The translations under genes were made by a program, and so were the position numbers. Shown here piece by piece: positions 8,125 through 13,680 of a stretch of 64,000 bases of DNA. Source of the stretch: Candidatus Scatovivens sp. (GTDB lineage Bacteria > Bacillota > Clostridia > TANB77 > CAG-508). How positions within the stretch are numbered: position 1 is the first letter of the stretch; each line of letters begins with the position of its first letter. The notes under the pieces are model-generated. The model was given only the letters and a program-made list of their open reading frames with translations. It made no database searches and was not told the DNA's origin. Location: positions 97,882 to 161,881 of the forward strand of contig JAZRKN010000014.1 of the NCBI GenBank assembly GCA_045646345.1, written 5' to 3'.

Positions 8125-8333
8125 ACAATTCATAAACAAAAATGTCTATGTTTGGGTGTTTGACCCAAACAAAATTTGCTTTTTTGAAAATTGTTTGGGT
8201 AAATGTTTGAAAAAACTGTAAAAAAATCAAAAAAGTTTAAAAGTGAAAATAGTAGTTGAAAGTATAGGAATGTTTATTTTGATATGGTTTGATTGGTTTT
8301 ATAAAAAAATAAAAGGCCCATTTTTAATGGACC

Positions 8334-8395
8334 TTTTGGTGCGCCCTTACGGGCGTTTTTGTTTATATTTAGGCATTTATTAATTGTTTGGGGTT
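8334..8395. repeat. att-like core plus right arm, copy 1 (copy 2 at 10706-10767)
   Basis: TTTTGGTGCGCCCTTACGGGCGTTTTTGTTTATATTTA....TT.ATTAATTGTTTGGGGTT is present at both sites. Confidence 0.9.
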
Positions 8396-9099
8396 GTATC
8401 TGGTTGTTTAAAATTGATATTATATATTATTTCAGTTAAAGGTGCTTTTACTTGATAAAATTCTGTATCTCCTATATTTTGATAATTCATATCAAATAAA
8501 ACAATTTTTAATGTATCATCTATAATAAATTTTTCAGGTATTTCAAACGACATTTTATGAATCAATGAACCATCATCTAGAAGCTCATCTTGTTTTTGTA
8601 GTCTAGCTTCATTCAATAAATTATGAAAATTATTTTCGAAAGCATTTAATCTTTTAAATGTGTGTGAATTCTTTTTATAATTTTCAAAATTATTTATATT
8701 AAACTTATCCATACTTATAAGCCATTCAAAACTAGAATCTAATGAAATTTGCCCATTAAATCTATCACCTAAATAATAGTCTTTGTTTGCAACTCTTAAA
8801 ATATAACCACTATGATTTAAAGGCTTTAAATGTGAAAATTTTAGATTAAAATTCAATTTATTTTCTGTATAATTTAAATCTGATAAAACAACTTTAAAAC
8901 CATCTATCTCGATTAAATTTTCTTCGACTAAAGCATTTTCCATATCATAAGATAAATCTTTTTCAACAGAATATATATCTTTATATTTATAATCATATAT
9001 TTTTTCGTATATAAACCATCCAATTTCATTATAAAATCTTAATACTATTAATAGAATAACAAGAATAACTAGCAATATAATTATTATCTTTTTCTTCAT
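8380..9099 (-). CDS. Hypothetical protein with N-terminal membrane anchor
   Basis: MKKK plus hydrophobic stretch and AAAGGAGG RBS. The last codons are encoded by the att right arm. Confidence 0.75.
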   Translation of the reverse strand: MKKKIIIILLVILVILLIVLRFYNEIGWFIYEKIYDYKYKDIYSVEKDLSYDMENALVEENLIEIDGFKVVLSDLNYTENKLNFNLKFSHLKPLNHSGYILRVANKDYYLGDRFNGQISLDSSFEWLISMDKFNINNFENYKKNSHTFKRLNAFENNFHNLLNEARLQKQDELLDDGSLIHKMSFEIPEKFIIDDTLKIVLFDMNYQNIGDTEFYQVKAPLTEIIYNINFKQPDTTPNN

Positions 9100-9272
9100 A
9101 ATTATTCCTCCTTTAACTTTTGTACTATAAATATATTATAACATATCTATACTATTAAATCAAAAGCTATAAAATCTGAGTAAAACAATTATAGAAATGG
9201 TTTACTTGAAAAAAATTAAATAATGTTATATAAGTAAGATAATTATATAATTTTTAATTGAAAGGATTTTTT

Positions 9273-10331
9273 ATGGACGAAAACAACAATAATAAATTAG
9301 AAAAAAACAAAAATACCAAAGATAGTAAAAAATACATAGAAAAATCAGATAATAATATAAAAAATTCACAATTTAGTAATTTAACGAATAAATTTAATGC
9401 GATTAATGCTGCTACCAGTTACGCTTCTGCTTTAACCTCTTTACAATATACTATAAATAAAATTTTACCAAAAGACTATATAGACACAATGTCAGTAAGT
9501 TTACTTCAAATACAAAATATTTTACCCCAAAATGATATAAAAATAATGTCTGAAATGCTCTTGCAAAAAAATTATCTAACAAATATATTTTTTAAATGTA
9601 ATACAAACATTTTAAGTGAAACTTTAACAAATAAAATATATTTATCTAATTTTATAGATAATGCAATTTCACAAAACAACATATTAAATAATATAAAAAA
9701 TATAAATATATATTATAAAGATACAATTGAAAGTTGTATGAATGAGATTTTAAAAGCCAAAATAGATTGGACTGATTTATATATAAAAAGTAATCTTACA
9801 ACATCTTTTTTGGCAGAAGATATAGAAAATTTTTCTGAAAAAGATAAAAAAGAAACCATAAAAAATGTAAAAGAAATTATAGCTTTAACAAAAGAAAAAC
9901 CTGAAAATAAAGAACAATTATTAAATAAAAAAATCACAAAACTAAAAGAAGAACATCCTATATCTTTTTCAATAATTCTAATTATTTTTCAGATTTTACT
10001 TGCAATTATTCCTAACTTATTTACTCAAAATTCCAACGAGTATTATACTAATAATTATTATACAAATAATGTTGTTATAATCGAAAATCCAAGTCAAGAT
10101 TTTATAGATAATGCTAGATATGTAACTGCTGAAAATCTTAATGTAAGAAGTGGTGCTGGTAAAGAATATAGTGTATTAACTATTTTGAAATATGGAACTG
10201 TTGTAAAAGTTAAAGAAAAAGTAAAACATTGGACAAAAATAGAATATATAGATAAAGATAATGATATTAATCTTGAAGGCTGGGTATATACAAGATATTT
10301 AGAAAAATTTGATAAGGAATTGCTTCAATAA
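9273..10331 (+). CDS. Membrane protein with C-terminal bacterial SH3 domain
   Basis: TM near aa 235, then YVTAENLNVRSGAG...WTKIEY...EGWVYTRYL (SH3b signature). ATG 9273 follows AAAGGA. Confidence 0.75.
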   Translation: MDENNNNKLEKNKNTKDSKKYIEKSDNNIKNSQFSNLTNKFNAINAATSYASALTSLQYTINKILPKDYIDTMSVSLLQIQNILPQNDIKIMSEMLLQKNYLTNIFFKCNTNILSETLTNKIYLSNFIDNAISQNNILNNIKNINIYYKDTIESCMNEILKAKIDWTDLYIKSNLTTSFLAEDIENFSEKDKKETIKNVKEIIALTKEKPENKEQLLNKKITKLKEEHPISFSIILIIFQILLAIIPNLFTQNSNEYYTNNYYTNNVVIIENPSQDFIDNARYVTAENLNVRSGAGKEYSVLTILKYGTVVKVKEKVKHWTKIEYIDKDNDINLEGWVYTRYLEKFDKELLQ

Positions 10332-10371
10332 AAAAAATAAAAGTATCAAAATAAATTTGATACTTTTATTT

Positions 10372-11715: not shown

Positions 11716-12181
11716 CTCCTTTCATCAATTTACTTTTGGCTCTATAATATATAACTCTAGCCCAGTTTTCGCTTTTATTTAATAAATCTCCGATTTCTTT
11801 AAAACTAAGCTCTCCTGATATTCTAAAAAATACCACTTGTTTACTTATTTCATCTAAATCATTTATTCTATTTTTTAATTCTTCTTTTTCGTTTTTTGAA
11901 ACAATTATATCTTCTATACATTCATTATATATTTGTTGTCCTATTTCATTTATATCTACATTTTTCTTACTTCTTTTTAATTCATCAAAATATAAATTTT
12001 TAGCTATTGAAATTAACCATGTTGAGATTTTACATTCATCTCTAAACTTATTAATATTCATTACTGCTTTATAAAAAGTTTCCTGTGTTAATTCTTCAGA
12101 CAGTTCTTCATTATGGCTTAAATATAATAGATATTTGTATACAGTTTCAAAATATTCACGATATATTTTGTCTATATCCAT
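11696..12181 (-). CDS. ECF RNA polymerase sigma factor
   Basis: SEELTQETFYKA...STWLISIAKN and LSFKEIGDLLNKSENWARVIYYRAK. Confidence 0.9.
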   Translation of the reverse strand: MDIDKIYREYFETVYKYLLYLSHNEELSEELTQETFYKAVMNINKFRDECKISTWLISIAKNLYFDELKRSKKNVDINEIGQQIYNECIEDIIVSKNEKEELKNRINDLDEISKQVVFFRISGELSFKEIGDLLNKSENWARVIYYRAKSKLMKGVDSYGE

Positions 12182-12362
12182 ATAAATTTCTCCTTTATTG
12201 TTAGACTTTTCAAAATACTTTTCGTTACATGTTTTTTAAAAATTTATAAAGATATTTATATTATATCAAAAAGTAATCATTTGCAAAACATTTGTTGAAT
12301 GCATATTACTTTTATGATACTATTTAATTGAAAAAATAGTAATTTTTTAAGGAGGTAATCCT

Positions 12363-13250
12363 ATGAAAAAAACTTTTAAAATTTTATCATTAATTTGTAT
12401 TTTAATTTCAATTGCTTCTTATGCATATGCAAGTTATACAACTTATGAAGCTGAAGAATATATATTAAAACTTAAAAATATTAATGAAGAAATTGAGAGA
12501 ATTGATTTAGTTAGTTTTGAAGAATGTAATCCGGAAGAAACAGGTGGAAATTATACAACTACATTTGAAGTAGTCCCCCTATTTGGAGAAGAATCTATAG
12601 ATTTTTTAGATAAACATGATACGGAAAACTATTACATTAAACAAATAATTAGATATAATTATTTATCTGGAAAAGCTGCACAAGATATCGAACATACAGT
12701 TTTATCTGGAAAATATGATGAATATAATGAAGGAAAACTTATAACATATGATTTAGCAAGAAATGAAAAATTTAATAACGCTCTAGAATTTTATCAATAT
12801 TGTTCTGCAGCTAAAGACAATGATTTTATTTGTGTAAAAACAACAACATATAAATCATATAAATTAACTCCTATAAAAGAAATTAGCCTTTCAGATATAA
12901 AAAACAATAAATTAACTTATAATCATGATGACTTTTCAAATTTAAAAATAGGATTCAGACTAAAAAATAAAAATGGAGAATATAAAACTTTTAAATCTAA
13001 TGAGAATTACATGACAATGACTAGATATGGTTCAAATCCAATAATAGATAAAGAAAAAATTATTATTTTTGATTATGAAGCAGGAACATACAAATCTAAT
13101 TCGCAATATTCATTCAAAGTTCCAATTAAAACAGGATCTCAATGGGTAAGTTTTATTTTTACAATTTCAATTCTTCTTTTAGTAATAATAATTTCTTTTA
13201 TTGTTTTGAATATTATCTCTAAAAAGAAAAAATTGAACAAAAATAAATAA
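12363..13250 (+). CDS. Exported protein with signal peptide and C-terminal membrane anchor
   Basis: Signal peptide ending AYA, C-terminal TM with lysine tail, AAGGAGG RBS. Confidence 0.75.
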   Translation: MKKTFKILSLICILISIASYAYASYTTYEAEEYILKLKNINEEIERIDLVSFEECNPEETGGNYTTTFEVVPLFGEESIDFLDKHDTENYYIKQIIRYNYLSGKAAQDIEHTVLSGKYDEYNEGKLITYDLARNEKFNNALEFYQYCSAAKDNDFICVKTTTYKSYKLTPIKEISLSDIKNNKLTYNHDDFSNLKIGFRLKNKNGEYKTFKSNENYMTMTRYGSNPIIDKEKIIIFDYEAGTYKSNSQYSFKVPIKTGSQWVSFIFTISILLLVIIISFIVLNIISKKKKLNKNK

Positions 13251-13267
13251 GGAAATTTATTTCCTTA

Positions 13268-13609
13268 TTCACACAGAAACTCTGTGAGTTTCTGTGTGTT
13301 AGAAACTGAAATTAGTTTTCGCATCTTCTATAGAAGGTGCTTTTTTTATTTTATTATTCTTCTTGAGTTTCTATAGAAAGTAAAAAAATACATTCCCAAA
13401 ATCGCACTTGGGAATGTAACTTACACACCCAAAAATGATTTTTTTGAAATTTGGGAATGTTTTTGGGAATGTAAATTGAAAAGACCAAGAAGTTTTGTGA
13501 GAGTTTTAAAAATATTAAAAAGCACAAATGTCTCTAAATGAACCTTTCTTAGACTTCATAACTTTTTTATAAAAAAATAAAAACCAGTATCTCTACTGGT
13601 TTTTGGTGC
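13268..13609. repeat. ~340 bp non-coding direct repeat, copy B, abutting the tRNA-Arg 3' end
   Basis: Aligns with 10372-10714. Confidence 0.95.
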
Positions 13610-13680
13610 ACCCAGAGGGATTCGAACCCCCGGCCTTCCGGTTCGTAGCCGAACGCTCTATCCAGCTGAGCTATGAGTGC
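13604..13680 (-). tRNA. tRNA-Arg (anticodon ACG)
   Basis: Reverse complement GCACTCATAGCTCAGCTGGATAGAGCGTTCGGCT-ACG-AACCGGAAGGCCGGGGGTTCGAATCCCTCTGGGTGCACCA folds as a cloverleaf with encoded CCA. Confidence 0.97.

Follow-up and report, generated by a model that had tools for sequence, protein, structure and literature searches.

Two cassettes lie in tandem at the 3′ end of a tRNA-Arg(ACG) gene in the window, by which we denote the whole stretch of 64,000 nucleotides analysed here. A core beginning with TGGTG starts at positions 8337, 10709 and 13604 and delimits units of 2,372 and 2,895 bp. The left arm of the central junction (10369–10718) is 94% identical over 351 nt to that at the tRNA site (13265–13613) by whole-genome BLASTN (E 8e-151), and the right arms at 8334–8405 and 10706–10777 are 92% identical over 72 nt. 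The left arm at 8337 is alike in design and differs in sequence from the other two. Each unit holds two to three divergent genes; the minus-strand genes end at 8380 and 10768, and the plus-strand genes face the opposite way. We thus agree with the layout given in the sequence-only reading, a first description of this DNA by a model, with its shared left and right arms, its distinct left arm at 8337, its outward-pointing genes in units of 2.4 and 2.9 kb and its attP-like junction at 10709. It had also noted the absence of an integrase at the stack: none of the seven PF00589 matches in the genome falls on the window's contig, and a profile search found no PF01076 match on that contig. An Rfam search of the arms for non-coding RNA returned only the tRNA. 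The features are listed from the tRNA outwards, with strand where one applies.

13604..13680, minus strand: tRNA-Arg(ACG), whose 3′ end serves as target for integration
13387..13613: attL arm of cassette 2, 93% identical to 10490–10718, with arm-type repeats at 13390, 13408, 13423, 13450 and 13462, a bidirectional terminator-like hairpin and the core
13318..13386: linker of cassette 2, with a hairpin, marking the int-mobV deletion join
13270..13307, plus strand: MOBV-type oriT of cassette 2, predicted nick after 13298, one A short compared with most other copies
12363..13250, plus strand: 295-aa protein of no family, likely anchored at the surface, with hydrophobic stretches at both termini
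11696..12181, minus strand: ECF sigma factor (Sigma70_r2 and r4_2)
10768..11715, minus strand: zf-HC2 anti-sigma factor (PF13490) with a variable C-terminal tail, stop codon within the right arm
10720..10777: right (attR-side) arm of cassette 2, where a GC hairpin (10714–10727) with a T-run is followed by two arm-type repeats, at the same offset as in attR of intact IMEs
10709..10719: internal core (attI, attP-like junction), matching the tRNA(CAT)-A 3′ end
10491..10708: attL-type arm of cassette 1, with arm-type repeats at 10494, 10512, 10527, 10554 and 10566 and a terminator-like hairpin at 10684–10709
10423..10490: linker of cassette 1
10374..10412, plus strand: intact MOBV-type oriT of cassette 1, predicted nick after 10403
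9258..10331, plus strand: 357-aa protein with a C-terminal bacterial SH3 domain (PF08239)
8380..9099, minus strand: 239-aa membrane-anchored protein, homologous to anti-sigma tails in relatives, 3′ end overlapping the right arm
8348..8405: right (attR-side) arm of cassette 1
8337..8347: distal core, matching the tRNA(CAT)-A 3′ end
8135..8336: attL arm from an older Arg(ACG)-specific element, by similarity to relatives' tRNA-Arg(ACG) arms
6122..8087, plus strand: second ECF sigma/DUF4179-like gene pair beyond the stack, by profile matches

The cargo had been described as unrelated. The two minus-strand cassette proteins indeed give no mutual BLASTP match, but a single anti-sigma protein in two relatives unites both types, with an N-terminus like that of the 10768–11715 product and a tail 60–63% identical to the 8380–9099 product. 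The ECF sigma factor is 95–98% identical in three relatives (G005, G063, G064), a homolog of the 295-aa protein (63%) lies past another tRNA-Arg island of G068, and the SH3-domain gene has no homolog in the relatives' loci compared. Searches of the ESM Atlas gave no usable match for the 295-aa protein and only unnamed clusters for the 239-aa protein. The sigma/DUF4179-like pair is probably cargo of the older element; its counterpart lies between two cores in G032 and directly behind a near-empty site in G064.

The tRNA 3′-end core recurs at all three positions, as first described, but the copies at 8337 and 10709 read as tRNA(CAT) (contig C1) and not as tRNA-Arg, the two differing at one base in the first ten. 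The match of both internal cores to tRNA(CAT) makes it likely that the cassettes use tRNA-Arg(ACG) as a secondary target, reached via the six terminal bases that it shares with tRNA(CAT)-A. In G063, the arm that separates tRNA-Arg(ACG) from an intact integrase is 71% identical over ~200 nt to the left arm at 8135–8336, and an internal junction of G032 shares 80% identity with that left arm over 220 nt; judged by this similarity, the 8135–8336 arm comes from an older Arg-specific IME.

Intact parent elements occur in relatives. The IMEs of G006 and G095 run tRNA(CAT), arm, integrase (PF00589), MobV (PF01076), oriT, cargo, attR, and G024 has the same order with mobV split. By BLAST, the arm at 10490–10718 is 82% identical over 227 nt to the integrase-side arm of the G006 and G095 elements (E 7e-55), and the module oriT shares 94% identity over 52 nt with the one that these elements carry upstream of mobV. 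Arm identities from global alignment had a noisy shuffled control (21–60%), and we therefore use only the 82% value, which BLAST yields independently. The ~350-bp left arm is accordingly an IME attL arm fused to the MOBV-type oriT of the same family, with the intervening int-mobV block gone; its outer 120 bp comprise the oriT and a linker that, among the relatives' loci compared, is seen only in integrase-less modules. In G006 and G095, int-mobV lies between arm and oriT; here the two are fused, which indicates that the units descend by deletion from a tyrosine-integrase/MOBV IME. The sequence-only reading missed the oriT and linker in the left arm as well as the intact parents. It had proposed to identify tRNA-Arg-targeting integrases by arm motif; parent integrases stand beside the 82% arm at tRNA(CAT) in G006 and G095, and an intact integrase beside the 71% arm at tRNA-Arg(ACG) in G063. 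In G032, which carries the module, an IME at another tRNA has a relaxase 81% identical to that of the parent and a near-identical oriT.

The predicted oriT has overlapping IR1/IR3 and IR2 hairpins around GTGTG/TT, in the layout that the available text of PMC3105389 gives for the pMV158 oriT. Among 17 distinct copies, both hairpins are paired in 98% of cells with compensatory changes, and the pairing score was reached by none of 500 shuffles, related copies not being independent. In 12 of 16 linker-free copies, mobV starts 103–656 nt downstream of the oriT. Nicking by a MobV relaxase is predicted after 10403 and 13298. Six of the 11 module copies, from four species, retain an intact oriT, the one at 10374–10412 included; in three it is deleted or broken and in two more a single base is missing. 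One of these two is the tRNA-proximal copy here (13270–13307), which may be impaired because most other copies have the missing A. From one module type to another, the oriT is 84–98% identical, with differences mostly in the loop, compared with 78–87% for the linker and ~60% for the arms, a conservation for which gene conversion or a recent origin, and not selection, could be responsible.

We found 11 copies of the fused module, with differing cargo, in six of 75 genomes of the genus (G000, which is this genome, G005, G032, G063, G064 and G068), directly at, or in junctions of, tRNA-Arg(ACG), tRNA(CAT)-A and tRNA(CAT)-B. Both the tandem accretion at a tRNA end and the combination of standardised arms with variable cargo that had been proposed are supported. 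A family-wide draw of 400 genomes, containing 21 of the genus and none of the five other carriers, gave 12 two-mismatch matches to the linker outside the genus, none with an oriT motif nearby. The exact junction 22-mer occurs in three GTDB records, one of them a Bacteroidota contig that has no arms and was taken as chance. A phage origin was likewise set aside: the 16-nt core gave 34 matches in viral contigs, taken as chance because all have 42–67% GC and each shows at most one arm, tRNA or integrase feature. A metagenome pattern scan gave one match, a short contig with terminator, core and right arm.

Silent sites point to recent horizontal spread of some cargo between species, since some cargo is 90–98% identical at these positions compared with 40–80% in the other genes compared (68–71% for a VirB4 conserved at 95–98%). 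Four-fold silent sites of the cassette sigma gene are identical at 26 of 29 positions in G005 and 29 of 32 in G064 (Fisher p 8e-5 and 2e-5 against neighbouring host genes), and those of three cargo genes at 186 of 194 in G068 (p 6e-18). The signal is weak in G063 (25/31 versus 42–80%).

The sequence-only reading had invoked a remote tyrosine recombinase acting in trans. Reliance on a tyrosine recombinase encoded elsewhere is supported; a resident enzyme is not, because the best integrase of this genome is only 49% identical to the parent type and sits at another tRNA, whose arm does not match that of the window by genome-wide BLASTN. Three of the seven PF00589 genes are of XerC/D size (320–352 aa) and four are larger and lie at or near other tRNAs. 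The sequences behind the tRNAs of these integrases gave no genome-wide BLASTN match to the window's arm and differ from it by eye. No integrase in the six genomes that carry the module reaches 80% identity to the parent type; besides the 49% in G000, the closest are at 52% in G005, 70% in G063 and 74% in G068, and G032 and G064 have none at E ≤ 1e-90. A resident relaxase was also discarded as helper, the genome's only MobV having an oriT with a different hairpin. A search for circular junctions and empty sites had been suggested. G064 has the orthologous site without either cassette; no excised circle or empty-site joint was seen in contigs from four public runs, a comparison that covered 10340–13850 only and in which the repeated arms hide an excision joint. 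Of 24 public runs, 20 contain 0.20–0.26 of the words.

On balance, we favour the interpretation that the units are stripped IME descendants with both arms and a predicted MOBV oriT but no integrase or relaxase, mobilised in trans by an intact relative: with arms and predicted oriT kept and the enzymes absent, the cassettes would likely spread between species by borrowing the enzymes of intact relatives. A helper integrase and excisionase would excise a cassette as a 2–3 kb circle, a MobV relaxase would nick the cassette oriT, and delivery would be through a mating pore, for which the conserved VirB4/VirD4-like system of the genus itself is a possible candidate. In the recipient, a helper integrase would insert the cassette at a tRNA 3′ end or an existing junction, displacing older cassettes outward. 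Where modules stand in tandem, recombination or relaxase transfer between the direct repeats may also free a circle with a ready-made attP.

A quite possible, if less favoured, alternative is that the units are ordinary CIMEs with a left-over oriT that move in cis only: an IME integrates beside a cassette, the composite transfers via the oriT of the IME, and the IME then exits alone. This route is already established in the streptococcal studies as far as their accessible text goes (PMC5704250, PMC7563491), its end product looks identical to that of transfer in trans, and G063 shows its geometry, with an IME in tandem with a cassette at two tRNAs. The oriT is moreover damaged or altered in five of the 11 copies, and the G005 cassette shows a horizontal-transfer signal and recently shared cargo although its oriT is gone. 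Against it, the oriT is the best-conserved part of the module while the arms have diverged to ~60%, the six intact copies in four species would be useless to a cis-mobilised element, and a single fusion join is reused at three targets.

We think it improbable that the units are immobile relics of one old sub-clade deletion, with cargo exchanged by homologous recombination anchored in the arms or tRNA flanks. The six carriers do include the genomes nearest to this one by the DUF5711 flank, and the modular exchange of anti-sigma tails and of genes within cassettes among relatives needs ordinary recombination. Site-specific integration is nevertheless required by tRNA(CAT)-type arms and cores in tandem at tRNA-Arg with exact att boundaries; the tRNA-Arg sequence of G005 differs from that here, its flank being 78–80% identical compared with 95% for the arm; and no ComEC (natural competence) was found in this genome, which is 96.7% complete. 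That the tandem is a chimera which the assembly made from strain variants or from an excised circle is very unlikely. The two arms are identical over ~40 nt beside the core and no contig of the four runs spans the full 10340–13850 stretch, but the left arms disagree at ~6% of positions and their outer neighbours are not the same, 10684–11588 is covered with seven differences by a contig of run X2 (reaching only 25 letters left of the core), and module-core-right-arm junctions of the same build occur in G068 and G063. Integrons and CALINs hold tandem interchangeable cassettes, mostly of one gene and in one orientation, with IntI and attC sites. The comparison with an integron-like array made at first, which implies recombination at folded single-stranded sites, fits the tandem cassettes, variable cargo and lack of an adjacent integrase but is hardly credible, because each junction consists of a tRNA-end core flanked by arm-type repeats with homology to att sites of IMEs, the cassettes hold two to three divergent genes between double-stranded att arms, no IntI lies at the locus, inspection and homology reveal no attC-type site, and the parent integrase scores 39.8 bits against the TIGR02249 integron-integrase model (cut-off 265).

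Among known systems, the cassettes are best described as a CIME-type element that also keeps a predicted oriT. Streptococcal CIMEs are, in the available text of PMC5704250 and PMC7563491, cargo-bearing, IME-derived elements of 1.2–13 kb with attL and attR but no longer with genes for integration and transfer, stacked at the 3′ end of a target gene, sometimes behind an intact IME. The window units likewise derive from an IME by deletion, keep attL and attR homologous to the arms and cores of intact IMEs and have no integration or transfer genes (no PF00589 or PF01076 on the contig; profile scans of the cargo). The same text describes CIMEs as moving in cis only, without a mobilization module, whereas a conserved predicted oriT is here fused to the attL arm in a 350-bp module found at three tRNAs in several species. 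Canonical Firmicutes MOBV IMEs (IMESag-rpsI, Tn4451, Tn6215; PMC5704250, in part) share their build with the parent elements in G006, G095 and G063, whose oriT is pMV158-like; the window units differ in having neither an integrase nor a MobV relaxase of their own. With a predicted oriT, no relaxase or mating-pore genes and a presumed dependence on a helper, they resemble iOriT elements and MGIs (PMC5704250, in part), and their oriT, whose function is predicted, is 94% identical over 52 nt to that of the likely helper (G006, G095). They differ from MGIs in lacking the integrase that is usual there. In the available text of a survey of iOriTs in six Proteobacteria (bioRxiv 10.64898/2026.01.13.699239), an integrase lies within 2 kb in 92% of att-delimited islands and is absent without trace from 6%, and every element but one is larger than 4 kb; units of the window type measure 1.8–2.9 kb, have no integrase and are direct descendants of their likely helper. 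A search of mainly open literature found no published account of integrase-less att-plus-oriT cassettes, of which the tables of that survey may hold cases.

Tentatively, these cassettes may represent a minimal integrative conjugative hitcher: a 0.4-kb att-plus-oriT module without protein machinery, an IME counterpart of a MITE, that would take integrase and relaxase from passing IMEs and the pore from a genus-core VirB4/VirD4-like locus, and would shuffle ECF sigma/anti-sigma sensors and surface genes across species at several tRNA ends. Surveys of mobilizable elements search for integrases and relaxases, to which units of this type are invisible; one streptococcal study states, in its available text, that its method could not find single CIMEs (PMC7563491). 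With parents, module and near-empty site all in hand, cis and trans transfer can be tested directly against each other. Should transfer be in cis only, the locus would be an ordinary, though clear, example of accretion from a Clostridia genus that has received little study. If the oriT is used, 2–3 kb enzyme-free elements would fall under the hitcher size floor reported in the accessible text of the survey (bioRxiv 10.64898/2026.01.13.699239), and the boundary between decayed CIMEs and active hitchers would blur.

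The tandem-cassette feature at tRNA-Arg(ACG) is real, and the sequence-only reading misread part of its meaning. In the genome under study (G000; 1.79 Mb, 28% GC), whose contig C14 contains the window, the 3′ core of this tRNA is repeated at 10709 and 8337. Re-measurement bore out the earlier description of arms, cores, divergent units and absent integrase: identity is 94% over 351 nt between the left arms (10369-10718, 13265-13613) and 92% over 72 nt between the right arms (8334-8405, 10706-10777), and C14 carries none of the 7 tyrosine-recombinase matches in G000.

Features of the tandem array
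Unit 1 (2,372 bp, cores 8337 to 10709), minus strand: 239-aa membrane-anchored protein
Unit 1, plus strand: SH3 protein
Unit 2 (2,895 bp, cores 10709 to 13604), minus strand: zf-HC2 anti-sigma factor and ECF sigma factor
Unit 2, plus strand: 295-aa protein, no family
13604-13680, minus strand: tRNA-Arg(ACG)

The cores had been read as recurrences of the tRNA-Arg end. Repeats do lie at 10709 and 8337, but both differ from tRNA-Arg at one of ten leading bases and instead agree with the terminal (3′) bases of CAT-A, a tRNA(CAT) of contig C1. ARAGORN types CAT-A as Met; from its features we take it to be probably Ile2. The left arm also lies directly behind CAT-A (77% identity, 380 nt), and the two tRNAs have their last six bases in common. 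Because the internal cores match CAT-A and the left arm adjoins it, we infer that CAT-A is the target of the family to which the cassettes belong, and tRNA-Arg a secondary site.

Behind CAT-A in two related genomes (G006 and G095), we found the arm, a 406-aa tyrosine integrase (PF00589), a 333-aa MobV relaxase (PF01076, NF041497), a short conserved sequence, other genes and an attR sharing the core (degenerate in G095). The order is unchanged in G024, where mobV is split. The inner 220 bp of the window left arm match the arm beside the G006/G095 integrase (82%, 227 nt, E 7e-55), and its outer part aligns (94%, 52 nt) with the conserved sequence found upstream of mobV. The conserved sequence is laid out like the oriT of pMV158 (PMC3105389): an IR1 hairpin extended into IR3 with GTGTG at its end, the nick site, and an IR2 that overlaps. 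Both oriT hairpins are 98% paired over 17 distinct copies; doubly changed cells number 7 and 4. The covariation score, which related sequences can inflate, was reached by 0 of 500 shuffles. The mobV start lies 103-656 nt downstream in 12 of the 16 oriT copies without linker. Since its inner part matches the integrase-side arm and its outer part the mobV-upstream sequence, the window left arm is, on these alignments, an attL arm plus a predicted oriT, a 70-bp linker replacing the former int and mobV. Among the loci fetched, the linker was seen solely in integrase-less modules. In the right arm, a GC hairpin is accompanied by two arm-type repeats, whose offset equals that in the attR of intact elements. 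We consider it established that the cassettes descend from an integrase/MobV integrative mobilizable element (IME), both enzymes having been lost and the att arms and oriT-like site kept.

This fused module occurs in 11 copies in 6 of 75 genus genomes (three each in G000 and G068, two in G063, one each in G005, G032 and G064), at tRNA-Arg(ACG), CAT-A, a third tRNA, CAT-B, or junctions bearing their cores. The search of the arms in relatives that the sequence-only reading had proposed revealed varying cargo: two HTH genes in G032, the sigma/anti-sigma pair alone in G005, and a chloramphenicol-acetyltransferase-family gene with HTH regulators on G000 C1 and in G068. The ECF sigma factor is 95-98% identical in four species (window pair 10768-12181; L041:9656-11102; L074:7429-8866; L072:8218-9637). 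In its anti-sigma partner, the zinc-finger N-terminus is conserved and the extracytoplasmic tail is exchanged (47% or no match); one tail type is a stand-alone gene in the window (8380-9099). The pattern is suggestive of a shuffling of sensor domains, with the right arm as anchor point. The cassette sigma gene agrees at 26/29 four-fold degenerate sites with G005 and at 29/32 with G064, and three cargo genes match G068 at 186/194; other genes compared reach 40-80%, VirB4 68-71% despite 95-98% protein identity, and the G063 sigma gene, at 25/31, is not clearly over background. Reuse of the module at three tRNAs and recent sharing of some cargo between species are thus established.

The third G000 copy (C1:293692-297530, behind CAT-A) carries chloramphenicol-acetyltransferase-family, MerR-like and HTH genes 97-99% identical to G068, and its contig stops before attR. 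At C13:1-1392, CAT-B is accompanied by the terminator part of the arm alone and a cyclase-like gene 99% identical to G068 cargo; a matching attR lies near the start of C17 (C17:1-1650), and the two ends are a further integrase-less island divided by a contig break. Two G068 contigs (L077, L228) both carry CAT-B and similar upstream genes, with an intact IME and a fused module, respectively, probably reflecting mixed strains in the assembly. In public gut-metagenome runs, an X1 contig variant lacks the sigma pair and runs from the right arm to the 295-aa gene (intervening letters not known), and an X5 variant lacks the 295-aa gene and runs from the sigma promoter region to oriT. X1, X2 and X5 (three studies) join window 13351 to 12302: immediately upstream of the 295-aa gene promoter stands an oriT-linker fragment, with 29 other letters in between; in other strains two oriTs may flank this gene, or it may lie on a small circle.

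The 8337 arm matches (71%, about 200 nt) a G063 arm that separates tRNA-Arg(ACG) from an intact block of integrase, xis and mobV; by this likeness, an older Arg-specific element has its left end here. Behind tRNA-Arg in G064 stand a 137-bp micro-element, a terminator of the 8337 type and genes homologous to window 6122-8087; both cassettes are absent from this orthologous, near-empty site. Among 30 tRNA-Arg(ACG) loci examined, a few with little flank, the window-type arm occurs at two (G000, G005), an 8337-type arm or terminator at five and an adjacent family integrase at two, one of these within the five. Micro-elements of ~137 bp duplicating the tRNA-Arg(ACG) 3′ end (L184:4903-5040 in G064, L048:13922-14060 in G006, L172 in G094) are alike internally in three species and resemble microCIMEs. 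By eye, the intact Arg(ACG) IME of G063 (L182:1620-19857 and L081:1-9840) carries an apparent polysaccharide-synthesis gene block; behind it come a junction, then a gene homologous to window 8380-9099 (73%), and a right arm in degenerate form.

For movement, a helper integrase would excise and integrate the cassettes, a helper MobV would nick their oriT, and the DNA would pass through a mating pore. We somewhat favour transfer in trans via the cassette's own oriT, because oriT is the best-kept module part: identity between the two module types is 84-98% for oriT, 78-87% for the linker and about 60% for the arms. A less probable route, with perhaps one chance in three, is passage in cis together with an IME that has accreted beside the cassette, as established in streptococci (PMC5704250, PMC7563491); two G063 loci have the IME-cassette geometry expected for it, and oriT is altered in 5 of 11 copies. 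It is intact in six, deleted or broken in three, and short by one base in two (window 13270 and G000 C1), a loss that turns IR3 into a perfect hairpin. Against current activity count the closest integrase to the parent type among module-bearing genomes (74% at most), the different oriT of the sole G000 MobV, and the proposed check for circular junctions, which found no excised circle in public contigs (window 10340-13850).

Candidate pore genes for the cassettes are the VirB4 and VirD4 loci. A pilin array and VirB4-like ATPase (window 35561-42440) occur in 71 of 75 genus genomes; four of the ~8 short genes in 35561-57713 were profile-scanned and all match T4SS_pilin/TrbC. The ATPase (40449-42440) follows the array and precedes several large membrane proteins of no family; no relaxase or integrase adjoins the locus. 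Given the occurrence of the VirB4 gene in 71/75 genomes at mostly 73-98% identity, the locus resembles a type IV secretion system that has been domesticated. The VirD4-like coupling protein (PF02534; C11:129170-131231, L216), read as two ORFs of 172 and 523 aa, lies amid housekeeping genes far from VirB4. Elsewhere in the window, three genes at 24587-30372, upstream of an initiator-type tRNA(CAT) at 33057, resemble by eye the M, S and R genes of a type I restriction-modification system. The 1,290-aa product of 140-4012, whose gene has internal repeats of ~843 and ~909 bp, could be placed in no family with confidence.

The proposed integron likeness fails, as the units show none of three tested integron features. 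They resemble cis-mobilizable elements in keeping att sites, having lost genes and descending from a parent element through deletion, but retain oriT. Like iOriT elements they have an oriT without relaxase; however, the iOriT survey (bioRxiv 10.64898/2026.01.13.699239) reports an integrase in 92% of att-delimited islands, whereas the units have none and are smaller than all but one surveyed element. Full-text searches of mostly open-access papers and of the main text of preprints found no description of att-plus-oriT cassettes. An oriT-like site is also present at the tRNA-Leu island of G000. The IME family of this genus exists in three grades: complete, relaxase-less and enzyme-free.
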